Below are positions 677 through 38,131 of a stretch of 38,537 nt of DNA, piece after piece. Position 1 is the stretch's first letter; every line of letters begins with the position of its first letter. Both the position numbers and the translations under genes were made by a program. Source of the stretch: Desulfobacterales bacterium (GTDB lineage: Bacteria > Desulfobacterota > Desulfobacteria > Desulfobacterales > JAHEIW01). Where the stretch lies: the NCBI GenBank assembly GCA_041559695.1, contig JBFFCW010000003.1, positions 1 to 38,537 of the forward strand, read 5' to 3'. The notes under the pieces are model-generated. The model was not told where the DNA came from. It made no database searches and saw only the letters and a program-made list of their open reading frames with translations.

Positions 677-825
677 AAAGTGACTAAAATTATCGCTCAC
701 CTCAGAGACGCAGAGTCCGCAGAGGTTTTTTATAAAAAAATTTTATCTCTGCACTCTCTGCGTCTCTGCGGTGAAACATTTAAAAATGACACAACTCCTC
801 GACTCTAGTGCACTTTAGTCACTTT
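677..825. repeat. Nested palindromic intergenic element: outer 12-bp inverted repeat, inner CGCAGAG-type element
   Basis: Outer AAAGTGACTAAA 677-688 / TTTAGTCACTTT 814-825. Inner TCACCTCAGAGACGCAGAG 697-715 / CTCTGCGTCTCTGCGGTGA 756-774 around an AT-rich spacer. Confidence 0.85.
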
Positions 826-2452: not shown

Positions 2453-3157
2453 ATGAAAACACTTCGGTTGGTTGGTATCATTATAACATCTCTGTTCTGT
2501 CTGTTTTTTTTGTTAGATACCCACGCGGCTGTGCACGCCCAGCAAACTGCACCTCCGTCCGATGACAGCATTAAATTTCAGTGGGCTTTCGGCGCCCTGA
2601 AAAAAGCCAATGGATCCAAATTTGAAGCGGTCACGCGTGACACGGTTCTAAAAACCGGCGATCAAATCAAATTTTTTATAAATGTCAACCAGGACTGTTT
2701 TGTTTATCTGATCTACCGCAGCTCACAGGGTGAACTCAGCGTATTGTTTCCCAAACGGTTCCAGTTACTGAGCACTGAATACACCGTGGCCGGCGATCAC
2801 TATATCCCCACCGATGATCAATGGTTCGAACTGGATGAGCACACCGGAGAAGAACGCTTCTATTTGCTTGCTTCTGTGAAGCGCCTGACTGAATTGGAGG
2901 CGCATATCAACGACTATGAAAGTGCCGATAAAGCTAAAAAGCCGCCGCTGGCCAAAAAAATTCTCACCGAAATTCGCAAATTAAGAAAACAACACCTGAA
3001 ATTTAAAACCTATGCCGAGCGGCCGGTGAACATTATCGGAAATTTGCGAGGTACCGAAAAGGCTGAGCCGGAAGGGGCTAGAGACATTGCCAAATATGCC
3101 GTAGAGATTTCAGCCGATACGTTTTATAGCAGGACCTTTACGATTGACCATCAGTAA
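2453..3157 (+). CDS. Secreted DUF4384-domain protein
   Basis: Signal peptide; LKTGDQIKFFI...CFVYLIY...GELSVLFP...GEERFYLLAS pattern typical of DUF4384; GGAGG RBS. Confidence 0.8.
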   Translation: MKTLRLVGIIITSLFCLFFLLDTHAAVHAQQTAPPSDDSIKFQWAFGALKKANGSKFEAVTRDTVLKTGDQIKFFINVNQDCFVYLIYRSSQGELSVLFPKRFQLLSTEYTVAGDHYIPTDDQWFELDEHTGEERFYLLASVKRLTELEAHINDYESADKAKKPPLAKKILTEIRKLRKQHLKFKTYAERPVNIIGNLRGTEKAEPEGARDIAKYAVEISADTFYSRTFTIDHQ

Positions 3158-3158
3158 A

Positions 3159-5501
3159 ATGCGAAGCATACGCCTTCCGATCGTATTAATCCTATCCGCT
3201 TTTTTTGCGGCCCACCTGTGTTTTTGGCTTTTGCCGAATGTCTTCGAGATTTGGAATTCCCAGACGATCGATCAACTTTTCATTTTTCGATCGCGAAATG
3301 AAAACCTTCGTCCGGATTACGACCCCACGGTTGTTCATCTGGATTTTAACAACACCAGTATTGAGCGGTTAAAGAATCTTTACCTGAACCGGCTTCATTT
3401 TGCCCAGCTGATTCGCAATCTGGCGTCCATGCAGGTCGCTGCCCAGGTTTACGATTTCATTTTTGCTGCCAAATTAAATGCCCAGGATGATCACGAACTG
3501 ATTCAAGCCGCCAAAGCAGCCGGCAATGCCTATTTTGGCCTGGCCCTGGAATTGCGAAAACCCGGTGAGCCGGGAATCCGCAAAAAAATTGCTTCAAAAG
3601 GCAGTAGTTATGTGCTCCAGACCTATTGGAATATTGGTGTGGATGCAGTCGATGATAAGCTTTATGTGGGCGAAAATCCACTGACCACCTATGCCGAGCT
3701 GGCGAATGCGTCCCGTGCGCTGGGGTCGCTGAGCGTTAAATTTGACCCCGATGGTGTTCTGCGACGCGTGCCGCTGCTGGTGCGTTTTGAAGATGCGTTT
3801 TATCCGCTTTTGCCGCTGCGCGTCATTTGTGACTATCTTCAGGTGCCGCCGGGAAAAATTGTGCTCGCAGCCGGACGGCATCTTATCCTGCAGGACGCCA
3901 TCCGGCCGGGATTGCCTGGCTCAAAACCTCACGATATCAAGATTCCCATTGATCGCCATGACAATATGATCGTCAACTATATTGGTCCGTGGGAGCGCAT
4001 GGACCACTATAATTTTGCCGACATTTTACGTGCCTCCGACGATCGTGATGAACTGGAAATCTGGGCTGAAGAACTAAACGGCAAAATCATCATTATTTCG
4101 GATGTGTCCACCGGCTCAACGGATGTCGGGCCGGTGCCGACCGATGCGAATTATCCCCTGAGCGGGGTGCATGCCAATGTGATTCACAATATTCTGACGG
4201 AATCCTTTCTCAGAGAGCTGTCCGAATGGGAAATGCTGCTTATCGAGATCTTGCTGTTAGCGGTGCTCCTTTTGCTTTCAATTCGTTTTTCTTCCCTGAC
4301 CTTTTCCCTGGGCACGGCTTTTGTTGCAGCAGCTTACATTGGTGTCGCGATGTTGAGTTTTTTATACGCGCAGGTCATCTTTAACCTTGTTCGTCCGCTG
4401 TTGATTATTGGTTTTGCCATGGTTGCCATCGTGGTTTACCGCTACGTTTTGGAAGAAAAGGCCAAGATGGAAAGCCTGCGCCAGCGAGATTTCATCCGCG
4501 ACACCTTCGGCCGCTATCTCAGCAGTGAAGTGGTTGAAGAACTGCTGGGTTCACCCGAAGGCTTGAAAATGAGCGGTGAAAACCGCGAGGTTACTTTTAT
4601 GGTTTCAGATCTGAGGGGATTTACGGCCCTCACATCCAGGCTTTCCCCCCATGAGGTTATCGAAATAATGAACCGGTATTTCGAATATATGGTTGAAATC
4701 ATTGCCCGCTATCGGGGGACGGTGAATGAGTTTATGGGTGATGGCATCTTGGCATTTTTTGGCGCGCCCCTGTATGCCGATGACGATCCGGAACGGGCGG
4801 TGGCCTGCGCCATCGAGATGCAAAATGCGATGGTGACGGTGAATGCCGAGCAGCGCCGGCTCAAACTGCCGAATCTTGATATGGGGATCGGCATTAATAC
4901 CGGTGAGGTGGTGGTCGGCAATATCGGCTCCGAGCAACGCGCTTCCTATGGCGCCGTTGGGACGCCGATTAACGCGGCCTATCGCATCGAGTCTTTCACC
5001 GTTGGCGGTCAAGTTCTAATCAGTCCCAGCACTTATGAAAAAGTGCAATCGCGGGTCAGCATCATCGGGACCAAGGAAGTCAAATTCAAGGGACTTGATC
5101 AGCCCGTATGCCTTTACGATGTTGGCGGTATCGGTGATCCCTATCAGGTTTTTTTGCCGGAAAAAGAAGCGGTTTCGCTGACCCAACTGAATCCGCCCTT
5201 GCCAATTGAATGCTTTCTGGTTGAAGGCAAAACCGTGTCCGGTACAGCGATTGACGGCCGCATTACCCACCTTGCAGGAAATGAGGCCGAAGTGGTTTTA
5301 GATGAAAAGCTATCGGACTTTACTAACCTGAGAATCGTACTGGTATCTTCTGAAGCCCGCGGGCTATCGGAATTTTATGCGAAAGTTTTGCCCCAGGATA
5401 AACCAGACGGTTCCGCTTCAGAACACCGCGCACAACTGCAATTTACCTCTATACCTCAAGACACCAAAGAATTTCTGGGCAAAAGGCAATCTGAGGGCTG
5501 A
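3159..5501 (+). CDS. CHASE2-domain class III nucleotide cyclase, Cya2-like (possible guanylyl cyclase)
   Basis: N-terminal TM; CHASE2 motifs DPDGVLRRVPL and GVHANVIHNIL; 3 TMs; cyclase motifs SDLRGFT, EFMGDG, GIGINTGEVVVGNIGS, INAAYRIE. The ATG at 3159 lies 1 nt after the upstream stop and is preferred to the TTG at 3144. Confidence 0.9.
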   Translation: MRSIRLPIVLILSAFFAAHLCFWLLPNVFEIWNSQTIDQLFIFRSRNENLRPDYDPTVVHLDFNNTSIERLKNLYLNRLHFAQLIRNLASMQVAAQVYDFIFAAKLNAQDDHELIQAAKAAGNAYFGLALELRKPGEPGIRKKIASKGSSYVLQTYWNIGVDAVDDKLYVGENPLTTYAELANASRALGSLSVKFDPDGVLRRVPLLVRFEDAFYPLLPLRVICDYLQVPPGKIVLAAGRHLILQDAIRPGLPGSKPHDIKIPIDRHDNMIVNYIGPWERMDHYNFADILRASDDRDELEIWAEELNGKIIIISDVSTGSTDVGPVPTDANYPLSGVHANVIHNILTESFLRELSEWEMLLIEILLLAVLLLLSIRFSSLTFSLGTAFVAAAYIGVAMLSFLYAQVIFNLVRPLLIIGFAMVAIVVYRYVLEEKAKMESLRQRDFIRDTFGRYLSSEVVEELLGSPEGLKMSGENREVTFMVSDLRGFTALTSRLSPHEVIEIMNRYFEYMVEIIARYRGTVNEFMGDGILAFFGAPLYADDDPERAVACAIEMQNAMVTVNAEQRRLKLPNLDMGIGINTGEVVVGNIGSEQRASYGAVGTPINAAYRIESFTVGGQVLISPSTYEKVQSRVSIIGTKEVKFKGLDQPVCLYDVGGIGDPYQVFLPEKEAVSLTQLNPPLPIECFLVEGKTVSGTAIDGRITHLAGNEAEVVLDEKLSDFTNLRIVLVSSEARGLSEFYAKVLPQDKPDGSASEHRAQLQFTSIPQDTKEFLGKRQSEG

Positions 5502-6959: not shown

Positions 6960-7015
6960 AGGTTTCGGGTGTCAGGTGTCAGGCTCGAAGAACAAAGGAT
7001 TCGAAACCCGAACAC
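6960..7015. repeat. Heptamer-arm palindromic element downstream of the four-helix-bundle gene
   Basis: AGGTTTC GGGTGTC AGGTGTC AGG (6960-6983), a short spacer, then the degenerate inverted arm CGAAACCCGAACAC (7002-7015). Confidence 0.8.
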
Positions 7016-7028
7016 TCAAGCTTAAAGC

Positions 7029-7499
7029 TTACTCCGTAACCGCTGGCCATCCATGCGGGAGAATTTCATCATTTGAGCCAAACACTTCCGGTTCCTCTGC
7101 TATTTGCCAGCGTTGCTCTCGTTCTGGGATCTTCCGCTCCAATGTTTTCTCTGATCCATTGAGCATGCGAATGCATTCTTTGCAAAGGCCCCGAAATTTT
7201 AAATATACCTCTTCGGAGATATATCCTTTGAGTTTAGCCATAAACAGGTGATGAATTGTCTCAGCTGCTTCACCTCGGCTGCGATTTACGCCTTCAATTT
7301 TATTACGGATATGCCGATCATCATTTTTCTCGGCAAGTTGGGCAGGTGCGCTGTTTGACGAATGCCTTGCCTGACTTCCCAACTCGTACTTCTCTTCTTG
7401 GGGCCAGGTGTGTGTCAAATCACAAACATCAATGTGCAACCGGCACAATTTTTTATAGACCTCAAGTTCCTCGACTTCCAAATAGTTCTTCGCAGTCAT
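7029..7499 (-). CDS. Four-helix-bundle protein (23S rRNA IVP-like family)
   Basis: ELEVYK...WPQEEKYELGSQARHSSNSAPAQLAE...SRGEAAET...AKLKGYI...IRMLNG is the family pattern. Start placed at ATG 7499 behind GAGAGGAG; the ORF-track extension to 7535 translates the repeat arm. Confidence 0.88.
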   Translation of the reverse strand: MTAKNYLEVEELEVYKKLCRLHIDVCDLTHTWPQEEKYELGSQARHSSNSAPAQLAEKNDDRHIRNKIEGVNRSRGEAAETIHHLFMAKLKGYISEEVYLKFRGLCKECIRMLNGSEKTLERKIPEREQRWQIAEEPEVFGSNDEILPHGWPAVTE

Positions 7500-7515
7500 T
7501 TCGCTCCTCTCAAAA

Positions 7516-7531
7516 CCTGACACCTGACACC
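7516..7531. repeat. Heptamer arm upstream of the four-helix-bundle gene
   Basis: CCTGACACCTGACACC is the exact reverse complement of 6968-6983 and abuts the symporter stop codon (7532-7534). Confidence 0.88.
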
Positions 7532-8893
7532 TCATATAGTTGGCCCCCAGAATTTAAGCGCGCGAATCAGCGCCAGCCCCACTGCCATCACGCCCAGAAA
7601 GACGAGCGAGGTGGCCCCAGCCCCCCAGTTCCACCAGACCGGGGCATTCACCAGCAGCAAACAACCGCCGATAGGCACGATGGAAAGGACATTCATCACC
7701 GCGATTTCGATGGCCACCGGAGTCTTAAAATCCGGGTCTGCGATCCGTAAAAGTAAAAGCCCGCAGGAGACGGTTCCGGTTACCGCCCCGTAGACAGCGG
7801 CCGTTCTTTCGAGGTTGTTGTCCCACAGGCGCTTTCCCAGGTAAACAACCATTATCGTGGTCAAAACGCCGTTGAGGATTGAAATCAGGAAAATGGGAAG
7901 CGCATATTTCCATACCACCAGAAATTGAATGGCCATCACCGTCGCCACGATCAGGAAATCGATGGACCATCCGGTAATTCTGCGCTGGATGCCGGGGTCA
8001 ATCAAATGTTGGGCACCAAATTTTTGGATCAGCATCCGGACGCAGATCGCAAAAAGAAGCCCGAACACAAAGAAAAATCCCCACATAATCTTAGCGGCAT
8101 CCGGCGGCAGCAGCAACCCCGTATATTTCACGAACCCGTAGGTCAGGAGGTAAACCAGCCCGACCAAGGCAGCCTGAAACGCCATTGAATCAACGTTGCC
8201 TGCATGCAGGGTCAGCTTACCGGCTGTTTCGGTCTGTTTGTCCCGGGGTATGATTCCGGTGAGAAAGTCCCGGGGTAACGCTTTCGCGCCGTAAGTGGCC
8301 AGCCCGTTTCGGATTCCCCGGTTGACGATCGGCACGCCCACAAAAAACGCAAACAGGTAACCGATGGCAGCAAAGGTCAGCCCGATTGTGGCGGCCTGTT
8401 CAAAGCCGAAACCCTCCCAGACTTTTCCGACCGACAGGGCCTGGCCGGGCCCTTCCTCAAATCCCAGGGGCGCCAGAAAACCAAACGTCGGAAAAAGCTC
8501 CATTCCCAGGACCCCGAAAAGTATGACCAGCAGACCGCCCACGGCCGCCTGCAGGCCAAAACACGAACCCTGGACCAGCGCCATCCAGGCCGGCCCCCGG
8601 ATAAACGCTTTGCCGCGGGGCGAGCTGTCTTTTTGGTCGGTGCTGTGGGTCAGCCCGACCGAAATAAAGGAGATATTGAAGAAATGATAGGCAAATATTT
8701 CCAGATCCGAAACGGCAATATTGATAACCCGGAAATTAACAAGGATCAGGCCGACGATGCCGCCGATGAGGCAGCTCGGAAAGAGAAATCTCTGAAAAAA
8801 GGGAACCCTGGCTCTCAGCAGCACGCCGATCAGCAGCATGCTTGCCAGCCAGCCGAAAACCAGCATGGATTCAAAAGGAAACGGGGCTGTCAT
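7532..8893 (-). CDS. Sodium/glutamate symporter (GltS/ESS family)
   Basis: Polytopic; PSCLIGG, GFEEGPGQA (variant of GGHGT), GLTFAAIG, YGAVTGTVSCGLLLLRIADP. Confidence 0.85.
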   Translation of the reverse strand: MTAPFPFESMLVFGWLASMLLIGVLLRARVPFFQRFLFPSCLIGGIVGLILVNFRVINIAVSDLEIFAYHFFNISFISVGLTHSTDQKDSSPRGKAFIRGPAWMALVQGSCFGLQAAVGGLLVILFGVLGMELFPTFGFLAPLGFEEGPGQALSVGKVWEGFGFEQAATIGLTFAAIGYLFAFFVGVPIVNRGIRNGLATYGAKALPRDFLTGIIPRDKQTETAGKLTLHAGNVDSMAFQAALVGLVYLLTYGFVKYTGLLLPPDAAKIMWGFFFVFGLLFAICVRMLIQKFGAQHLIDPGIQRRITGWSIDFLIVATVMAIQFLVVWKYALPIFLISILNGVLTTIMVVYLGKRLWDNNLERTAAVYGAVTGTVSCGLLLLRIADPDFKTPVAIEIAVMNVLSIVPIGGCLLLVNAPVWWNWGAGATSLVFLGVMAVGLALIRALKFWGPTI

Positions 8894-9108: not shown

Positions 9109-10851
9109 ATGAAAAGATTTTTGTGTCTTTTGAGCATCTTTGCACTGATCCTGTGTGCGGTCGGTGCGAAAGCCGAAGTTAAAAATCCGGATATCTTTGT
9201 GCTGGCCGACTACCGGACGGTGCAGACGATTGACCCGGCCACATCCTACGATGTTGCCGGATCCATGCGGATCTGGAATATGTATGAGACACTGATTTTC
9301 TTTGACGGCAGTTCAACGGAAAAATTTGTACCGCTGCTGGCAGCCGAAGTTCCAACGGTGGAAAACGGCGGCATCGCGGCAGATGGCAAAACCTATACGT
9401 TTAAAATTCGCAAAGGCGTAAAATTTCACGCCGGTGGTGAATTGACTCCGGAAGATGTGGTCTATTCCTTCAAGCGCAATATGATTGTGGACCAGGACGG
9501 CGGTCCCATGTGGATGTTGCTGGAAGCTCTGACGGGCAATGGTTCGACACGGGATAAAGACGGCAAAATCATTCCCGGTGTGTTTGAAAACATCGACCAG
9601 GCAGTTGAAGCCAAAGGGGACAGCGTCGTTTTCCATTTGCCCAAACCCTACCCGCCTTTAATGAGTATTATGTGTTATACGGCGTCTTCCATTTTAGACA
9701 AAGAATGGGCCATCGCCACAGGCTGCTGGGATGGAAATATTAAAAATGCCGCTAAATACAACAATCCGGCACCCGGTCACGAGCCCTTGCAAAAAATCGA
9801 AAATGGAACCGGCCCGTATCATTTGAAACAGTGGGAACCGGCCAAACAGTTTATCTTTGAACGCTTTGACGGGTACTGGGGCCCCGCGGCCAAGATTAAA
9901 ACGGGAATTGTCAAGTATGTCAAAGAATGGAGCACCCGCAAGCTGATGCTTCAAAATGGCGACGCCGACCGCGTTGTGGTCGACACACCCTATGTGCCGG
10001 AAGTCAAGGCCATGAAGGCGCTCAGCATTTATGAGGTGCCCCAGTTGTCTTATACCGCCGGCATGTTCTGTCGCAAAATCAACCCAAGCGGCAACCCCAA
10101 TATCGGCAGCGGCAAACTGGACGGAGACGGTATTCCGCCGGATTTTTTCACCGATATCAATGTGCGCAAGGCGTTCTTGCACGCTTTTGACCGCAGTACT
10201 TACAAAAAAGATGTCTTCCACGATCTGGTCATCATGCCCACCAGCCCGAATGTAGAAGGTCTGCCATACCACATCGATGTGCCGGTGTATGAATTTGATT
10301 TGAAAAAAGCCGCTGAATATATGAAACAGGCCTGGAACGGCCAGGTGTGGGAAAAAGGCTTTAAGATGATCATCACCCACAACACAGGCAATGAAATGCG
10401 TGAGGCGGCCGCCGTGATGCTGGCTGAAAATATCATGTCCCTGAATCCCAAATTCAGAATCGATGTGCGCAATGTCGAGTGGAAAGACTATGTCGTTAAA
10501 ATCCGCGATTTTCAGTACCCGATGTTTTTGAGCGGCTGGGGGGCGGACTATGCCGACCCGCACAATTTTGTCTATCCGTTTATGCATTCAAATGGGTATT
10601 ACGGTAAATTTATGAGCCTGAAGAACGACAAAATTGACGGCTTGTGCGACGCCGGTATCGAAAATGTCGACCCCCGCAAGCGCCAGGAAATTTATTCACA
10701 GCTTCAAAAAATCTGGTACGAGGATGCCATCGGCATTCCGCTTTACCAGCAGATCGTGGTGCGCGCCTACCGGGATTATGTGCACGGCTTTGTCCCCAAT
10801 GCCATGTTTACCGATGATAATGAGATCCTGAAACGTCTTTACAAAAAGTAG
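9109..10851 (+). CDS. Peptide/nickel ABC transporter substrate-binding protein (family 5)
   Basis: Signal peptide (AKA-E); TIDPATSYD, DGKTYTFKIRKGVKFH, NGTGPY, GWGADYADP; AAGGAGG RBS. Confidence 0.93.
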   Translation: MKRFLCLLSIFALILCAVGAKAEVKNPDIFVLADYRTVQTIDPATSYDVAGSMRIWNMYETLIFFDGSSTEKFVPLLAAEVPTVENGGIAADGKTYTFKIRKGVKFHAGGELTPEDVVYSFKRNMIVDQDGGPMWMLLEALTGNGSTRDKDGKIIPGVFENIDQAVEAKGDSVVFHLPKPYPPLMSIMCYTASSILDKEWAIATGCWDGNIKNAAKYNNPAPGHEPLQKIENGTGPYHLKQWEPAKQFIFERFDGYWGPAAKIKTGIVKYVKEWSTRKLMLQNGDADRVVVDTPYVPEVKAMKALSIYEVPQLSYTAGMFCRKINPSGNPNIGSGKLDGDGIPPDFFTDINVRKAFLHAFDRSTYKKDVFHDLVIMPTSPNVEGLPYHIDVPVYEFDLKKAAEYMKQAWNGQVWEKGFKMIITHNTGNEMREAAAVMLAENIMSLNPKFRIDVRNVEWKDYVVKIRDFQYPMFLSGWGADYADPHNFVYPFMHSNGYYGKFMSLKNDKIDGLCDAGIENVDPRKRQEIYSQLQKIWYEDAIGIPLYQQIVVRAYRDYVHGFVPNAMFTDDNEILKRLYKK

Positions 10852-10882
10852 GAGCGATCTTAAATAATAATCAAATGATACG

Positions 10883-10997
10883 GGTTGAGCCCGTTGGCCC
10901 GTTAGCCCGTTTGCCGGTTAAAAACAACACCAGTCCTTTTCCTATCTTAATCGGCTTAACTGGCTCAATCGGCTCAACCGGCTCAACCGGCTCAACC
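10883..10997. repeat. Inverted tandem 8/9-mer element, GGCTCAACC family
   Basis: Left arm GGTTGAGCCCGTTGGCCCGTTAGCCCGTTTGCCGGTTAA (10883-10921); right arm TTAATCGGCTTAACTGGCTCAATCGGCTCAACCGGCTCAACCGGCTCAACC (10947-10997). Confidence 0.9.
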
Positions 10998-11005
10998 TGA
11001 CAATT

Positions 11006-12037
11006 ATGCTCGCCTATATTACGCGACGGTTTTTGCTTTTGATATTGGTGCTGTTCGGGGTATCGGTGCTGCTTTTTGGCATCTTTATGACCTTCAGCCC
11101 GGAACGCAGAGCCGCCGCCTACGTCACCTCTCCCCAGCAGGCCAAAGACATTCCCCGGATCATCGAGCAGTTCGGTCTGGATGATCCCTTTTACATCCAG
11201 TATTTCCGCTGGGTAAAAGAACTATCCCAGGGCAACCTGGGCTGGTCCCTTGTGGCTTCGCGGCCGGTGGGCGAAGCCTTCTGGAATTATTTTCCGGTCA
11301 CCCTGGAGATGAATCTGTTTGCGGCCCCCATTGTTATTATCTTTGGCATCTGGCTGGGGACCTTATCCGGTATCCACCGCAATACCTGGATCGACCATTC
11401 GACCCGAATTCTGGCGATTGTGGGCTGGTCGCTGCCCACCTTTTTCTTTGCGCTGGTTATGCTGATGGTCTTTTACGGCTACTTTCAAATTTTTTCTCCG
11501 GGTGTGATCAGCGACTATTTGTCCATGTCAATCATGGACAATCCGGAGGCGTTTACCCGCTACACCGGTTTATACACGCTTGACGGCATCCTCAACCGGC
11601 GCTGGGATGTTACCCTGGATGCGATGTCCCACCTGGTTCTTCCGGTTCTAACCTATGTCATCGTTGTTGTGGCACTAAACATGCGGGTGATGCGCTCGGG
11701 CCTGATCGAAGAGCTGTCCAAAGATTACGTGATTACGGCCAGAGCCAAAGGCGCCGATAACAAAACCGTTTATATCAAGCACGCCCGGCGCAATGCCTTG
11801 TTGCCGGTGATTACGGTGGCCGGTCAGATGGTGGCCCTGTCCATGGAGGGCAGCATTGCTGTGGAAGTGGTTTTTAACCGCCACGGCATCGGCTGGTGGC
11901 TGGCCGAATCGTCGATTCAACTCGATACACCGGTGCTGCTGTGTATTTGCCTGTTTATGGCGGTGGTGTTTGTCATCACCAATCTGACGCTGGATATGAT
12001 GTATGCGTATATTGATCCGAGAATACGGTTGAATTAG
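11006..12037 (+). CDS. Peptide ABC permease, DppB/OppB-like
   Basis: MLAYITRR, GLDDPFYIQY, DYVITARAKG (EAA loop), YAYIDPRIR. Confidence 0.93.
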   Translation: MLAYITRRFLLLILVLFGVSVLLFGIFMTFSPERRAAAYVTSPQQAKDIPRIIEQFGLDDPFYIQYFRWVKELSQGNLGWSLVASRPVGEAFWNYFPVTLEMNLFAAPIVIIFGIWLGTLSGIHRNTWIDHSTRILAIVGWSLPTFFFALVMLMVFYGYFQIFSPGVISDYLSMSIMDNPEAFTRYTGLYTLDGILNRRWDVTLDAMSHLVLPVLTYVIVVVALNMRVMRSGLIEELSKDYVITARAKGADNKTVYIKHARRNALLPVITVAGQMVALSMEGSIAVEVVFNRHGIGWWLAESSIQLDTPVLLCICLFMAVVFVITNLTLDMMYAYIDPRIRLN

Positions 12038-12127
12038 TTCTATTAGTTAAATTGGTTCAATTGGTTATGTCTCCGAGGACGCTTTATAAACAAATTAAAC
12101 CAATCAAACCAATCAAACAAATGAAAC
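12028..12127. repeat. Inverted tandem 9-mer element, AAACCAATC family
   Basis: Left arm GTTGAATTA GTTCTATTA GTTAAATTG GTTCAATTG GTT (12028-12066, overlapping the dppB stop); right arm TAAACAAAT TAAACCAAT CAAACCAAT CAAACAAAT GAAAC (12087-12127). Confidence 0.85.
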
Positions 12128-12137
12128 GGTTTTACAT

Positions 12138-13043
12138 ATGACCACACGACATCCCAGACTGCGTGAGCTTAAATTTACGCTGCACCGGATTTTCAGAAAC
12201 CCGGCGGCCATTATCGGGTTTTCCCTGATTTTGTTTTTCGCGGCCGTGGCCGTTTTTGCGCCGCAAATCGCACCACCGAAATACGACCACAACCCCTATC
12301 TGATGCCCCACAAAGGCTTTTCGCCCACTCCCAAACCGCCCAGCGAAACCCATATTTTCGGCACCGCGTCCGGCCAGTACGATATCTTTTACGGCGTGGT
12401 CTGGGGGACGCGGACCGCCTTTAAAATCGGGTTGTTTGTGGTCGGCATCGCGGCGTTGATCGGGGTCACTCTCGGAGCGATATCCGGCTATTACGGCGGA
12501 ATTGTCGATGAGGTGTTGATGCGCATTGTGGATATCATGTGGGCCATCCCCACCCTGGTGCTGGCCATGACCATTGTGGTGGCTTTCGGCCGGGGTCTCG
12601 ACAAAATCATGATTGCCCTGGCGCTGGTGGGCTGGCGCTGGTACGTGCGCGTGATACGTTCTGAAATCCTGACGTTGCGCGATCAGGATTTTGTCCAGGC
12701 CGCCAAAATAATGGGCGTGTCCGACGTTATGATAATTCTGCGCCATATCATCCCCAATGCGATTTATCCGGTATTGATCCTGGCAACCATGGACATGGGC
12801 TCCATGGTGATCACCGCCTCGTTTATGAGCTTTGTGGGGCTGGGGGCACCCAAGGGATTTGCCGATTGGGGCCAGATGATTGCCCTGGCAAGAAACTATA
12901 TTGTGGGCCCGCCGGACGATCCGCTCAAGTTCTGGTATGCGATTGTCTTTCCCGGCGGCTGTATCGTCCTGTTTGTTCTGGGGTGGAATCTGATCGGCGA
13001 TGCCTTGCGCGACGCCTTCGACCCGAAGTTGAGACGCAGATGA
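12138..13043 (+). CDS. Peptide ABC permease, DppC/OppC-like
   Basis: HIFGT..GQYDIF, DFVQAAKIMG, RHIIPN, NLIGDALRDAFDPK. Confidence 0.93.
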   Translation: MTTRHPRLRELKFTLHRIFRNPAAIIGFSLILFFAAVAVFAPQIAPPKYDHNPYLMPHKGFSPTPKPPSETHIFGTASGQYDIFYGVVWGTRTAFKIGLFVVGIAALIGVTLGAISGYYGGIVDEVLMRIVDIMWAIPTLVLAMTIVVAFGRGLDKIMIALALVGWRWYVRVIRSEILTLRDQDFVQAAKIMGVSDVMIILRHIIPNAIYPVLILATMDMGSMVITASFMSFVGLGAPKGFADWGQMIALARNYIVGPPDDPLKFWYAIVFPGGCIVLFVLGWNLIGDALRDAFDPKLRRR

Positions 13044-13077
13044 TTTGAATGCGGATTTTAGAATATTTGATTTGTTT

Positions 13078-13332
13078 TTTTGGACAGGATTTACAGGATT
13101 AACTGGATATTTTTTTGGCTTTCCGGATGAAAGCCAAAAATCTCAATCGCCTTCGGCGAATAAACATAATTTAAATTCCCATGATATTGGTTACTTGAAA
13201 GTATGCTGCTGCCATTAAAATACATTGAGTGGTTTTTCCCGCCGTCAGGCGGGATTGGGTTTCATCACTTTCTTCTGGAAAGTGATGAAAAATAAAAATA
13301 ATCCTGAATAATCCTGTAGATCCTGTCTAAAA
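13078..13332. mobile_element. MITE-like element, about 255 bp, with ACAGGATTT tandem terminal arms and four internal hairpins
   Basis: Left arm TTTTGGACAGGATTTACAGGATTAACTGGAT (13078-13108); right arm AATCCTGAATAATCCTGTAGATCCTGTCTAAAA (13300-13332). Internal hairpins at 13112-13140, 13147-13159, 13237-13254 and 13260-13290. Mobility is inferred. Confidence 0.7.
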
Positions 13333-13344
13333 CAAAAGAGAAAA

Positions 13345-14505
13345 ATGACCAAATTGCTGGAAACCGAAAACCTGGTGACCAACTTTTACACCTACGAAGG
13401 GGTGGTCAAGGCTTTGAACAAAGTGAGCCTGGTGGTCGATCACGGCTCTACCTTCGGTCTGGTGGGCGAATCCGGTTGCGGCAAAAGCGTAACGGTCCGC
13501 TCCATTATGCGAATTGTGCCGGAACCGGGAAGCATCGAAGGCGGCAAAGTGATTGTTTATCTGGACGAAAAGAACAAAACGGCCGGCATCGACCTTCTTC
13601 AGCAATCAGAGGCTTATATGCAGCGCCTGCGCGGAGAGCGCATTTCCATGATCTTTCAGGAGCCGAATGCAGCCTTGAATCCGACGATGCGTATCGGTGA
13701 TCAGATCGCTGAAAGCTTTTTGTTTCACCAGAAACAGCAGATGTGTAACAAAGTTTTAAAGGATCTCGAATCCCCGGACTGTCGCACGGTTTTTCCGTTC
13801 AAACGGTTACAGCAGACCATCTATCGGATGGCGGCCCGACGTCCCGATGCCTTCATAATCCGCCTTTTCAACCGGATTCCGCTTTTACGGTTCTGGCAGC
13901 GGCGCCTGAACGCTGAGGCCCGGGCCCGCGCGGTTGAAATTATCGCCAAGCTGGGGATTCCCAACGCCAAAAGTATCATCGAACAGTATCCGCATCATTT
14001 ATCCGGCGGTATGAAACAGCGCATCGTTATTGCCATTGCGCTGGCCTGCAGCCCCGTGCTGCTCATTGCCGATGAGGCCACCTCGAATCTGGACGTGACC
14101 ATCCAGGCCCAGATTCTGGAACTGCTTCACCGGCTGAAGCAGCAAGAGATTTCTTCGGTTTTATTGATTACCCATGATCTGGGCGTTGTCGCTGAAACCT
14201 GTGACCGCGTGGGCGTTATGTATGCCGGGAACCTGTGTGAAGTTGGCGATGTGAAAGATTTATTCCAAAAGCCGTTGCATCCCTACACCCGGGCCTTACT
14301 GGCTGCCGTACCTAAATTTTCAATGGAAGATGAGTTAAAAAGCATTGAAGGCAATGTGCCCAATCTGGTGACCCCGCCGAGCGGCTGCCGGTTTCACCCG
14401 CGCTGCCCGCATGCCATGGCGGTGTGCCAGGAGGCATTTCCCGAAATGACCGAAATAGGACCAACGCATCTGGTGGCCTGTTACTGGGCCGCCTCGAAAA
14501 GATAA
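13345..14505 (+). CDS. Peptide ABC ATPase, DppD/OppD-like
   Basis: [24 protein letters not shown]-terminal GCRFHPRC...C...C. Confidence 0.93.
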
Positions 14506-14506
14506 T

Positions 14507-14593
14507 TCACCGCCCGCTTCGCTAAAGCCGCAGAGGGCGCAGAGAAACAAAATATAAATAAAAAACTTTGCGATCTCTGCGTCTCTGCGGTGA
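14507..14593. repeat. CGCAGAG-family palindromic element, second copy
   Basis: TCACCGC...CCGCAGAGGGCGCAGAG, AT-rich spacer, CTTTGCGATCTCTGCGTCTCTGCGGTGA. The right end is identical to 756-774. Confidence 0.88.
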
Positions 14594-14604
14594 GAAATGG
14601 CAAA

Positions 14605-15633
14605 ATGGACAAAATACTGGAGCTGAAAAATCTGAAAAAGCACTATCCCATTTTAGGGGGAGTGCTGCGCCGGGAAGTCGGCACCGTCAAAGCTCTTGAT
14701 GGGATCGACCTGGATATCTATCGCGGGGAATGTCTCGGGGTGGTCGGAGAATCAGGCTGCGGCAAGACCACTGCCGGAAAAGCAATCATCCGCCTGTTCA
14801 AGCCGACCGGCGGACATGTTTATTATTACCGCAAAGGCGCTGAATCTATAGTGCCGGCGGATCTTGCCCACGAGAAAAAGTCCCGTATTAAAAAACTCGG
14901 CCTGCGCGGCAGGTTGCAGATGGTCTTTCAGGACCCCACTACCTCGCTGGATCCCCGCATGCTGATAAAACATATTGTTGCCGAACCCATCAAAACCCAG
15001 AAACGGATGAGCGGCCGGGATCTGGAAGAGCGGGTTCTGGAATTGCTTAATCGGGTGGGTTTAACCCGGGATCATCTGCTGCGCTATCCGCATGAATTTT
15101 CCGGCGGGCAGCGGCAGCGGATTGCGGTCGCCCGGGCGATTGCCACCGATCCTGAGTTTATCGTGCTGGATGAACCGACCTCTGCCCTGGACGTATCGGT
15201 TCAATCACAGATTCTCAACCTGTTAAAGTCTCTGCAGCAAACCCTGCATTTAACCTATATGTTCGTCACCCACCACCTGCTGGTGGTCAAATACATCAGT
15301 GATCGGGTGGCGGTGATGTATCTGGGAAAAATTGTAGAAATTGCCGACACCCGGGTTATCTTTTCGAAACCGGTACATCCTTATACCCATGCGCTGATGT
15401 CCGCGATCCCGATTCCGGATGTCGCCTATCAGCAGCAGCGCATCGTTTTGAGCGGCGATGTACCCAGCCCCGCCAATCCACCGGCGGGCTGCCGATTTCA
15501 CACCCGCTGTCCCTTTGCCGTTGATCGTTGCCTGACCGAAGAACCGCTACTTGAAGCCGTGGAAACCGGACATCTGGTGGCCTGCCGTCGCAAACATGAA
15601 ATGGAAAAGCTAGTGGCCGAAAGATTTGGCTAA
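14605..15633 (+). CDS. Peptide ABC ATPase, DppF/OppF-like
   Basis: [38 protein letters not shown] 14605 is preferred because GTG 14590 lies inside the repeat. Confidence 0.93.
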
Positions 15634-20913: not shown

Positions 20914-20951
20914 TTAACGGGCTTTTCGGGAAACGGGCAAACCGGCAAACC
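20914..20951. repeat. Solo degenerate arm of the GGCTCAACC-family element
   Basis: TTAACGGGCTTTTCGGGAAACGGGCAAACCGGCAAACC resembles the right arms at 10947 and 38089; no partner arm seen. Confidence 0.6.
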
Positions 20952-38029: not shown

Positions 38030-38131
38030 GGTTGGCCGGTTGAGCCCGTTAGCCCGTTGTGCCCGTAAGAAAGTACCCCGTTCCATTTTTAACGGGCTAA
38101 ACTGGCGCAACCGGCTCAACGGGCTCAACCG
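38030..38131. repeat. GGCTCAACC-family inverted tandem element, second full copy
   Basis: Left arm GGTTGGCCGGTTGAGCCCGTTAGCCCGTTGTGCCCGTAA; right arm TTAACGGGCTAAACTGGCGCAACCGGCTCAACGGGCTCAACCG. Confidence 0.9.

Follow-up and report, generated by a model that had tools for sequence, protein, structure and literature searches.

Intervening sequences, which fragment 23S rRNA, exist in other bacteria also without an ORF. Short tandem units and inverted repeats similar to those described below are known from other taxa as well: the STRR of heterocystous cyanobacteria are intergenic tandem heptamers, and eukaryotic foldback transposons carry long inverted terminal repeats composed of tandem subrepeats. 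REP, BIME and REPIN sequences are likewise abundant extragenic palindromes that lie after genes and are rare in divergent spacers, but the elements reported here differ from them in their design of tandem units, which come in dozens of unit families. According to the available portion of a 2016 paper, intervening sequences are stem-loops with terminal inverted repeats that are cut by RNase III and sometimes contain an ORF of the PF05635 family; several genera are listed, their distribution is sporadic, and their origin is called unclear (PMC4990558). The accessible part of another paper describes Chunjie, a MITE of Geobacter uraniireducens that has inserted in an operon, with inverted repeats of 21 bp and direct repeats of 9 bp (PMC3184786). 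No description of arms consisting of tandem 7-9-nt units was found in the literature searched.

The window, that is, the whole stretch of 38,537 nt analyzed here, belongs to a Desulfobacterales MAG (3.9 Mb, 72% complete) and contains a peptide transporter operon with the gene order SBP_bac_5/permease/permease/ATPase/ATPase:

9109-10851, forward strand: solute-binding protein gene (SBP_bac_5; Pfam PF00496, E 5.3e-70), first gene of the operon
11006-12037, forward strand: permease gene (Pfam domain BPD_transp_1)
12138-13043, forward strand: second permease gene (Pfam domains BPD_transp_1 and OppC_N)
13345-14505, forward strand: ATPase gene (Pfam domains ABC_tran and oligo_HPY)
14605-15633, forward strand: second ATPase gene (start uncertain: 14590 GTG, 14597 ATG or 14605 ATG)

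An earlier note on this DNA had placed inverted arrays of short units in each internal gap of the operon, and TRF together with a comparison of inverted arms recovered arrays of 8-10-nt units at the same positions in 4/4 gaps. Further copies occur elsewhere in the window:

10883-10997, no strand assigned: gap 1 element of the GGTTGAGCC/GGCTCAACC family, with left arm (10883-10920), loop and right arm (10952-10997)
12028-12127, no strand assigned: gap 2 element, AACCAAT-type 9-mers; period-9 arrays 12028-12067 and 12088-12127
13066-13344, no strand assigned: gap 3 element of the ACAGGAT family, ~250 nt long, with outer arms (13084-13108, 13297-13326) and a variable centre
14507-14593, no strand assigned: gap 4 element of the CGCAGAG family with units of 8 nt; right arm 14561-14593, left arm degenerate
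698-773, no strand assigned: second CGCAGAG-family copy, in the loop of a AAAGTGACT-armed element (about 677-870)
20927-20951, no strand assigned: solo arm (CGGCAAAC, 8-nt units), lacking an inverted partner
38031-38129, no strand assigned: second GGTTGAGCC-family copy; fold -57.2 kcal/mol, z -7.1

The four operon elements are ORF-less, and a search of the whole window against Rfam at gathering score returned 0 matches. They are no assembly artefact, as gaps 1, 2, and 4 are covered with 0-1 differences by contigs of X4, a DNA run of another study that was compared with the gaps. In gap 1, the left array (10884-10920) has a period of 8 with units GTTGGCCC and the right array (10952-10997) a period of 9 with 5.1 copies of CGGCTCAAC (both TRF); the inverted arms are 84% complementary, the RNA fold reaches -51.5 kcal/mol (z -6.05), and contigs from other loci have loose ends beginning at the element boundary, 10883. 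The left arm of the gap 2 element overlaps the permease stop codon, and its arms (25 nt, 80% complementary) yield a weak RNA fold (-21.5 kcal/mol, z -2.0) that was equally good in 7/200 shuffles. The gap 3 element is a composite of roughly 250 nt and more than a simple hairpin: besides the arrays at 13084-13108 (ACAGGATTA) and 13297-13316, it comprises an inverted pair of 36 nt (13066-13101/13309-13344) and two perfect subterminal hairpins of 12-13 bp (13112-13140 and 13260-13290), with an RNA fold of -104.3 kcal/mol (z -10.2). The gap 4 element carries the family termini TCACCGC...GCGGTGA at 14507 and 14593, contig loose ends lie at 14560 and 14593, and its inverted arms (14526-14544/14566-14584) are 79% complementary; it folds with -36.4 kcal/mol (z -4.3) and the family copy at 698-773 with -45.8 kcal/mol (z -10.3). 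That the elements end 8-12 nt before the next ATG is true of this operon but not as a general rule, the median distance to the downstream start being 49 nt in 143 co-oriented contexts, based on crude ORF calls.

Like intervening sequences, these elements have a stem-loop with inverted repeats at its termini, and in both, a small four-helix-bundle ORF can be present in the loop or missing. Complementary termini forming a long stem are found in the predicted folds of all four gap elements and in the rRNA copy of genome G057 (see below), and a PF05635 ORF in the loop is absent from the four operon elements but present at 6960-7532 of the window. Differences are the position of the operon elements between protein-coding genes instead of in rRNA, and their hundreds of copies per genome. 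As far as Chunjie and MITEs are described in the accessible part of PMC3184786, they share with the gap elements the small size, the absence of coding capacity, multiple copies, terminal inverted repeats, stable RNA folds, and an operon left unbroken; for the gap elements, however, neither a target duplication nor a transposase partner was found, and their inverted repeats are tandem short units. Of the features of a plain MITE, terminal inverted repeats, small size, non-coding nature, and multiple copies are all present, but no target-site duplication was seen by eye, and no full-length IS with these ends was found among the PF05635 and Y1_Tnp loci examined. We consider it probable that each gap element is an ORF-less representative of one of four small palindromic families, a foldback, MITE-like DNA with the architecture of intervening sequences.

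Each gap family is multi-copy in the host genome, in agreement with the proposal of small non-coding palindromic elements that have one design and several families. The genome contains 55, 31, 13, and 53 arms of the families of gaps 1 to 4, respectively, and arm counts per family range from 13 to 233. Arrays with periods of 6-12 number 1819 compared with 525 in a first-order Markov shuffle, and those scoring at least 40 number 439 compared with 28. An inverted partner within 600 nt (score at least 12) accompanies 472 of the 1769 merged arrays, vs. 12 in the reversed and 37 in the complemented control, and 971/1769 arrays fall in the non-coding 14.5% of the genome. About 249 inverted-array elements with a median length of 104 nt are present in the MAG. 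Their terminal inverted repeats consist of 2-5 degenerate tandem 7-9-nt units with the G-rich version on the 5' arm, on either strand; G exceeds C on this arm in 194/249 elements and C exceeds G in 33/249. Family polarity is also apparent from pairs in one orientation (17/18 and 67/70). The unit sequences, thought to be unrelated, do define distinct families, but have this polarity in common.

The families are multi-copy and common to species of the genus and family. CGCAGAG copies are ~70 nt long and extend from TCACCGCAGAG to CTCTGCGGTGA; the pattern has 47 matches in the host genome and matches in 17/21 other genomes of the genus, and copies per genome range from 0 to 112 within this one genus, the reversed-pattern control being 0 everywhere. 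The ACAGGAT family has five paired copies in the host genome, and in the alignment of four long copies homology ends at GACAGGA...TCCTGTC, while the stems of the hairpins differ in sequence between copies and the hairpins persist. Both families have defined termini, the loops are related in the CGCAGAG and GGTTGAGCC families, and contigs of other loci join at arm boundaries, with a related loop. Such elements could also have originated locally and repeatedly without transposition, if slippage duplicates units and templated quasi-palindrome correction copies them to the other arm. Unit numbers that vary between orthologous copies, the more than 60 unit families, and arms that in some cases combine related CAG-type heptamers into a mosaic would all agree with this route; still, we regard it as highly improbable in view of termini common to many unlinked loci, the related loops in two families, the recurrence of the same families across genera, and a PF05635 cassette that is 73-89% identical at no fewer than five unrelated sites. 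Growth in place could account for the tandem design, though not for the dispersal. No target-site duplication was seen by eye at 17 CGCAGAG copies or at cassette copies, whose flanks are A+T-rich, and no clean pair of an empty and a filled site was found at nucleotide resolution; for these reasons, transposition is what we infer rather than what we observed.

The earlier note had also suggested comparing the operon in relatives for presence and absence of the elements, and both gap occupancy and family indeed vary. Elements turn over at orthologous sites, with conservation in six relatives for gap 1 (AB), where loci L003-L008 have an orthologous copy, L001 is empty (40 nt), and L002 is mostly replaced. 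The gap 2 family is also found in L002 and L007 and as a remnant only in L001. In the window operon CGCAGAG occupies gap DF, whereas L002 and L005 have it in CD; ACAGGAT occupies CD in the window operon and L001 but DF in L005 and L007. Operon gaps of distant relatives measure 4-20 nt. That six relatives have kept the gap 1 element at its site is also consistent with a function that has been retained.

Such a function could be exerted at the RNA level. Long mRNA hairpins tuning processing and stoichiometry had been offered as one reading of the gaps, a claim left unsupported by strand-folding and arm-complementarity tests. In its general form, this explanation holds that selected cis-acting mRNA hairpins (REP-like stabilizers or processing sites) set the levels of binding protein, permease, and ATPase, and that repetitiveness is secondary. 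It can point to an element in every internal junction of the five-gene operon, to strong predicted stems in three of the four gaps, and to the gap 1 element kept in six relatives. In gaps 2 and 4, moreover, the stem base begins on the upstream stop codon or a few bases from it at most, and 3-12 nt separate the end of the stem from the next start, which makes ribosome-dependent melting or coupling conceivable. Gap 1 is spanned by an RNA-library contig (X16 record 11), as is gap 2 (X15 record 4), which would agree with co-transcription, though DNA may be present in libraries of this kind; the references of PMC3184786 include a citation for REP involvement in a transport operon. However, in 135 co-oriented elements both strands fold equally well, with no asymmetry between sense and antisense (76 vs. 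58, p = 0.29; G-U pairs 410 vs. 385), and arms of the same copy are no more complementary to each other than arms of different copies (24.29 vs. 24.98; 18.47 vs. 19.30). Furthermore, the family in a given gap changes among relatives, the gap AB of L001 (40 nt) has no element, and the gaps of distant relatives measure 4-20 nt. The co-oriented share, finally, equals the background: of the 198 classifiable elements 143 (72%) lie between co-oriented genes, as do 71% of neighbouring gene pairs, so that the supposed preference for co-oriented junctions was not borne out. The only depleted class is that of divergent spacers (15/198 elements vs. 467/3191 gene pairs). On balance, selected mRNA hairpins are an unlikely explanation.

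Alternatively, the gap elements might depend, as non-autonomous partners, on a transposase family that is already known and present in these genomes, being either REP/REPIN sequences with a RAYT or palindromic elements derived from IS200/IS605. The survey of transposases, which covered Y1_Tnp (PF01797) genes, detected them in 21/21 other genomes from the genus, each with 3-12, and the genus also includes a true REP-RAYT pair; the lack of an evident target duplication resembles single-strand transposition, and the ACAGGAT subterminal hairpins change sequence between copies and stay paired. Among 11 further Y1_Tnp regions, an ACAGGAT arm occurs at L155 only, where an IS200-type tnpA lies inside an ACAGGAT element. 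This gene has its own hairpin just 5' of the ORF and looks nested in the element, and a contig end cuts the locus. Against such a partnership, the Y1_Tnp genes of roughly 325 aa have inverted ends of their own, unlike those of the gap elements, at 5/5 complete loci, a non-tandem REP palindrome of another kind flanks the single RAYT-like gene that was examined (L152), and the host genome (72% complete) gave no match to PF01797. No REP/RAYT or IS200-type partner with tandem-unit arms was found among the Y1_Tnp loci examined, and we judge a dependence on these transposases to be quite unlikely. The hallmark of the REP/REPIN-RAYT class, a RAYT gene flanked by the very repeat in question, was found neither at the RAYT-like gene of L152 nor in the 72% complete host genome.

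The only ORFs found bracketed by tandem-unit arms belong to PF05635, and the window contains one such locus:

6960-7532, reverse strand: heptamer-armed cassette with GGTGTCA-unit arms (6966-6983 and 7516-7531)

It encloses an ORF for a PF05635 four-helix-bundle protein (7029-7493 or 7535; Pfam E 4.6e-22). The suspected link between the gap elements, this cassette, and four-helix-bundle ORFs is real; the same arm design brackets PF05635 genes. Inverted flanking repeats scoring at least 14 are present at 19/29 and 47/58 assessable PF05635 loci of the genus (66/87; 87 loci were examined of the 108 listed); many of these loci are orthologous sites, and the counts therefore overstate independent events. 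As background, 19 of the 249 elements enclose any called ORF (3678 ORF calls). At the level of the phylum, PF05635 occurs in 51/81 sampled genomes, and 27/30 loci from 30 genomes have inverted flanking repeats, 20/30 also passing the periodicity filter. Arms of the gap 1 family (L056, L057) and of a gap 2-like family (L067, L072) are found at PF05635 loci; none of the 87 genus loci examined has a PF05635 gene with CGCAGAG or ACAGGAT arms, and two of the four gap families are consequently without an ORF-bearing counterpart.

The heptamer-armed cassette is homologous at five or more sites in the genus (A, B, C, L102, and L114), and its homology (73-89%) is confined to about 570-590 nt and ends at the arms. 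Genomes G019 and G010 each possess copies at both site A and site B, and these sequence comparisons show that at least this cassette has spread between sites as a unit. In the host genome the window cassette recurs as arms only; the ORF-less copies are thus no simple deletion derivatives, because the cassette interior is absent from them. Both 23S rRNA genes of the related genome G057 are 3466 nt long, and in each a PF05635 ORF is enclosed by CTAGAGA-type heptamers in inverted orientation. This copy is a true 23S rRNA intervening sequence with the same arm architecture, and its heptamer pattern has 241 matches in G057, compared with 0-1 in each of four others. Arm copy number is only weakly linked to the presence of a matching PF05635 cassette, with 23-347 pattern matches in genomes that have the heptamer-armed cassette vs. 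5-212 in those without; G006 (97% complete) has 212 matches and no heptamer-armed cassette.

If the gap elements are, as we propose, ORF-less members of palindromic families, they would be selfish or near-neutral insertions tolerated in spacers, intra-operon junctions included, and the operon spacers would originally have been only 4-20 nt long. In the operon transcript the elements would fold into stems of 20-35 bp, which by analogy to intervening sequences are probable RNase III substrates. Unit number might drift through slippage, and insertion may favor hairpin loops, as suggested by the site in an rRNA helix and by nesting inside other elements. We tentatively entertain a wider reading, which is possible but more doubtful: all inverted tandem-unit elements might form one widespread bacterial foldback mobile class that inserts in hairpin loops, with the PF05635 (S23p) cassette as its ORF-bearing form and the four-helix-bundle protein as its own factor, for example as an oligomer reading tandem units on single-stranded nucleic acid. 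Insertion targets would be rRNA helices, other elements, and intergenic stems; the classical 23S rRNA intervening sequence would be just one insertion site of the PF05635 cassette, and the hundreds of ORF-less hairpins per genome, those in all four operon gaps included, would be its non-autonomous relatives.

The data join three topics that are usually kept apart, namely abundant intergenic short tandem repeats, the PF05635 family, and the intervening sequences that fragment 23S rRNA. A large share of the non-coding DNA in these genomes consists of the elements, which, with 16/249 of them at contig ends, probably break metagenome assemblies. They put long stems into polycistronic mRNAs and are therefore relevant to operon prediction and to transcript ends in metatranscriptomes of sulfate reducers. 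If the link to PF05635, a widespread yet functionless family named "23S rRNA intervening sequence protein," is causal, it would point to a class of mobile elements without recognizable transposase and would offer a direct experimental handle on the spread of intervening sequences. Should the wider foldback reading be true, it would provide a biology for intervening sequences, which have long lacked an explanation, and for the PF05635 family.

The MAG containing the window (3.9 Mb in 487 contigs, 49% G+C, completeness 72%) carries left and right arrays of 8-10-nt units, inverted relative to each other, in all four internal gaps of the operon, and the four inverted tandem-unit elements reported in the earlier note are thus real. 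The features concerned are:

9109-15633: operon genes for an SBP_bac_5 binding protein, two BPD_transp_1 permeases and two ABC_tran/oligo_HPY ATPases
10883-10997: gap 1 (AB) element, RNA fold -51.5 kcal/mol, z -6.05
12028-12127: gap 2 (BC) element, RNA fold -21.5 kcal/mol, z -2.0 (weak)
13078-13332: gap 3 (CD) element, RNA fold -104.3 kcal/mol, z -10.2
14507-14593: gap 4 (DF) element, RNA fold -36.4 kcal/mol, z -4.3
6960-7532 (-): heptamer cassette enclosing an ORF for a PF05635 four-helix-bundle protein (23S rRNA intervening-sequence protein)

An Abhydrolase_3 gene follows downstream of the operon genes. The gap 3 element is a composite of about 250 nt with two perfect subterminal hairpins, and in that of gap 4 the left arm is degenerate and the termini are those typical of the CGCAGAG family. 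Gaps 1, 2 and 4 are covered by contigs of another study's DNA run with 0-1 differences, and no Rfam family matched the window at the gathering threshold. The relatives retrieved with the binding protein were Desulfobacterales MAGs, including one Olavius-associated Delta 1 genome (83% identity). Two contigs labelled as Gammaproteobacteria and as an archaeon (L009, L014) carry the Desulfobacterales operon with 83-84% protein identity and are probably mis-binned.

Such arrays are abundant throughout the genome of the MAG. Tandem Repeats Finder (TRF) detected 1819 arrays of period 6-12, compared to 525 in a first-order Markov shuffle, and 439 versus 28 at a score of at least 40; after merging, 971 of 1769 were intergenic, although crude ORF calls span 85.5% of the genome. 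An inverted partner within 600 nt (score at least 12) was found for 472 arrays, versus 12 and 37 in two composition-preserving controls. Pairing yielded 249 elements with median arm, spacer and total lengths of 23, 57 and 104 nt, respectively, and a unit period of 7 (103 elements), 8 (64), 9 (62) or 10-12 (20). The families share a common polarity, the 5' arm having G>C in 194 elements versus C>G in 33, and unit orientation relative to the element centre is nearly fixed within families (17/18; 67/70). With genes defined by crude longest-ORF calls, which makes distances to starts approximate, 143 elements lie between co-oriented, 40 between convergent and 15 between divergent genes, 35 overlap an ORF call and 16 lie at contig ends. 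Since the background comprises 2265 co-oriented, 459 convergent and 467 divergent gene pairs, divergent (promoter) spacers are avoided, whereas operon junctions are not specially targeted.

Arms of the following families recur in this genome (counts for two units with at most 2 mismatches; some shuffled-unit controls also match, because they coincide with other families):

GGCTCAACC arms: 55
AAACCAATC arms: 31
ACAGGATTT arms: 13
CGCAGAGA arms: 53
heptamer CAGGTGT arms: 233

CGCAGAG copies measure about 70 nt, their termini being conserved and their loop rich in A+T, and a long form contains hairpin-rich cargo of about 150-200 nt; several copies are nested inside the loops of AAAGTGACT-armed elements, for example at window positions 698-773. 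ACAGGAT copies can be aligned over about 250 nt, with homology stopping at the arms, and their subterminal hairpins change in sequence between copies while pairing is kept. Contigs from other loci, assembled from sequencing runs, meet the window exactly at 10883, 12122/12127, 14560 and 14593, and those of gap 1 contain an alternative, related loop. Of all joints listed for the run contigs, most connect ABC-ATPase paralogues or other repeat copies. Parts of the window without run coverage and the small-share RNA runs X17-X20 were left out as evidence. The long forms of ACAGGAT and CGCAGAG follow one internal plan, consisting of an arm, a 12-13-bp hairpin with A/T-run ends, a small G+C hairpin, a variable centre and the mirror image of these parts (window 13112-13140 and 13260-13290; gap CD of L005). 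Some heptamer elements (G000 C10, C150, C19, C26, C165) have two-layer arms with outer CAGGTGT and inner CAGAGGA-type units, and the units of many heptamer families begin with CAG.

Comparison of the operon with loci in other genomes revealed turnover. Gap AB holds the same family as the window in L003, L004, L005, L006/L008 and L007 (DppA identity 88-89%). In L001 (best segment 95-96% identity) this gap measures 40 nt without the gap 1 element, and in L002 (95%) only the last gap 1 units are left beside a different REP-like doublet. This doublet (~11742-11926), made of a GTGGGAGCGGC-type palindrome that also flanks the Y1_Tnp gene of L152, has taken the place of most of that element. The CGCAGAG family occupies gap CD in L002 and L005 and gap DF in the window, ACAGGAT is found in gap CD of the window and L001 and in gap DF of L005 and L007, and gap BC of L005 contains a gap 1-type element; the family classifier used for the operon gaps misses degenerate arms, and many gaps scored as one-armed or empty hold an element visible by eye. 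In more distant relatives (e.g., L034, L038, L012, L014) the gaps measure 4-20 nt, so the long gaps are derived. The arm pattern of the CGCAGAG family was present in 17 of the 21 additional genus genomes (0-112 matches per genome), in all three genomes from another genus and in 2 of 16 further families in the order; its reversed control had no match anywhere. Comparison of intergenic regions between the window and L002 yielded neither a target-site duplication nor an exact empty site, as these regions are too diverged or occupied by other elements. Tandem-unit arms enclose another palindromic repeat, of the GTAGGGTCGGCC...GGCCCGCCCTAC type, in gap DF of both L001 and L002. L063 and L075, two copies with identical scores in the same genome, belong to a 3.3-kb duplicated or contaminant region with 96.7% identity throughout and were uninformative.

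Alternatively, the elements might be retained as long mRNA hairpins that tune operon expression. Contigs from RNA libraries bridge gaps 1 and 2, which is compatible with read-through transcription, though short of proof. Sense and antisense folds did not differ among 135 co-oriented elements (76 vs. 58, Wilcoxon p = 0.29), and complementarity was no higher between the two arms of a copy than between arms taken from separate copies; both findings speak against the hairpin of the individual copy being under selection at the RNA level. An effect of the elements on the operon may still exist and would be compatible with both. Arms in this genome were even slightly less complementary within an element than across copies (4982 and 4999 of 5000 permutations reached the observed value), perhaps because perfect palindromes are avoided or as an effect of the alignment. 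The earlier note's multi-family set of non-autonomous elements is largely borne out, while its proposals of junction targeting and of expression tuning found no support.

The Y1 transposases (PF01797) are absent from the 72% complete genome of the MAG and number 3-12 in each of the 21 further genus genomes. Those in open frames of about 325 aa, where the Y1_Tnp domain is N-terminal (L142-L146), occur 3-12 times per genome in the genus, with none found in the genome of the MAG, and have inverted ends of their own (~25-35 nt). L152 (G018:C19), a RAYT-like Y1_Tnp gene (194-aa frame) flanked by the GTGGGAGCGGC-type palindrome, forms with it a classical REP-RAYT pair, but this REP differs from the tandem-unit arms. 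No transposase bracketed by tandem-unit arms was seen among the Y1_Tnp loci examined in the genus. The idea that IS200 drives the ACAGGAT family was rejected: the only case, the IS200-type gene of L155, sits within an ACAGGAT element next to a contig end and is probably nested.

The arms were also associated with PF05635 genes; among the 21 further genomes of the genus, G007 has none of these genes and the remaining 20 have 2-9 each. Flanking inverted repeats scoring at least 14 were found at 66 of 87 assessable loci (19/29 and 47/58; maxima of the reversed controls 13.5 and 17, respectively), many of these loci being orthologous and most of those without arms representing one conserved site. 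The repeats visibly consist of tandem units of many families, among them the gap 1 family (L056, L057), a gap 2-like family (L067, L072) and AAAGTGACT (L112, L116, L119, L120); CGCAGAG or ACAGGAT arms surrounded none of the 87. In the phylum, PF05635 occurred in 51 of 81 sampled genomes, and among 30 loci from 30 genomes the flanking repeat scored at least 14 in 27 and above control in 29, with 20 passing an added periodicity filter. Heptamer-armed cassettes share 73-89% identity over only ~570-590 nt between unrelated flanks, and were found at several sites:

Site A: window, L101, L104
Site B: L103, L107, L108, L109
Site C: L096, L097
Further sites: L102; L114

G019 and G010 each have both a site A and a site B copy, and the number of arm units varies between orthologous cassettes. 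On these sequence comparisons, the heptamer-armed cassette has moved as a unit. At the site orthologous to that in the window, L007 has heptamer arms without the ORF, and in L002 and L003 the units belong to a different family; elsewhere in the genome of the MAG the cassette arms recur and the interior does not, and only 19 of the 249 elements surround any ORF call. A relation between arm copy number and the presence of a cognate PF05635 cassette amounted to a weak trend only. Adjoining the window cassette is a 453-aa ORF (7532-8893, -) lacking a Pfam match at E 0.001. The four-helix-bundle protein of the window gave no match in the plasmid collection (tblastn) or, as a single sequence, in the PDB, and a 12-sequence profile matched only 2gsc and 2rld, both uncharacterised.

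The same architecture extends to ribosomal RNA. In G057, a closed genome from the same phylum, each of the two 23S rRNA genes measures 3466 nt and includes a PF05635 match:

L190 (G057:C1:554973-561438), ~2760-3240: PF05635-bearing 23S insert; also L191

The ORF lies between inverted CTAGAGA-type heptamers (score 27.5 vs. control 10), and G075 has a 29-nt hairpin in place of the insert. Across the G057 chromosome the heptamer pattern matches 241 times, compared with 0-1 times in each of four other genomes, and these heptamers are also present immediately upstream of the 23S genes. Intervening sequences are described as stem-loops with terminal inverted repeats, cleaved by RNase III in the stem and of unclear origin, and an old proposal holds that their ORF serves mobility (PMC4990558). 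Like the window elements and the PF05635 cassettes, the intervening sequence of G057 has inverted arms of tandem units.

Searches of open-access papers turned up no account of inverted tandem-unit elements, nor of such elements flanking PF05635 genes. What is new is that a tandem-unit arm architecture is common to the gap elements, the PF05635 cassettes and a 23S rRNA intervening sequence. The weak copy-number relation and the lack of an ORF-bearing counterpart for two of the families call for caution about a simple autonomous/non-autonomous model, and the four-helix-bundle protein may be involved in the movement of the elements.
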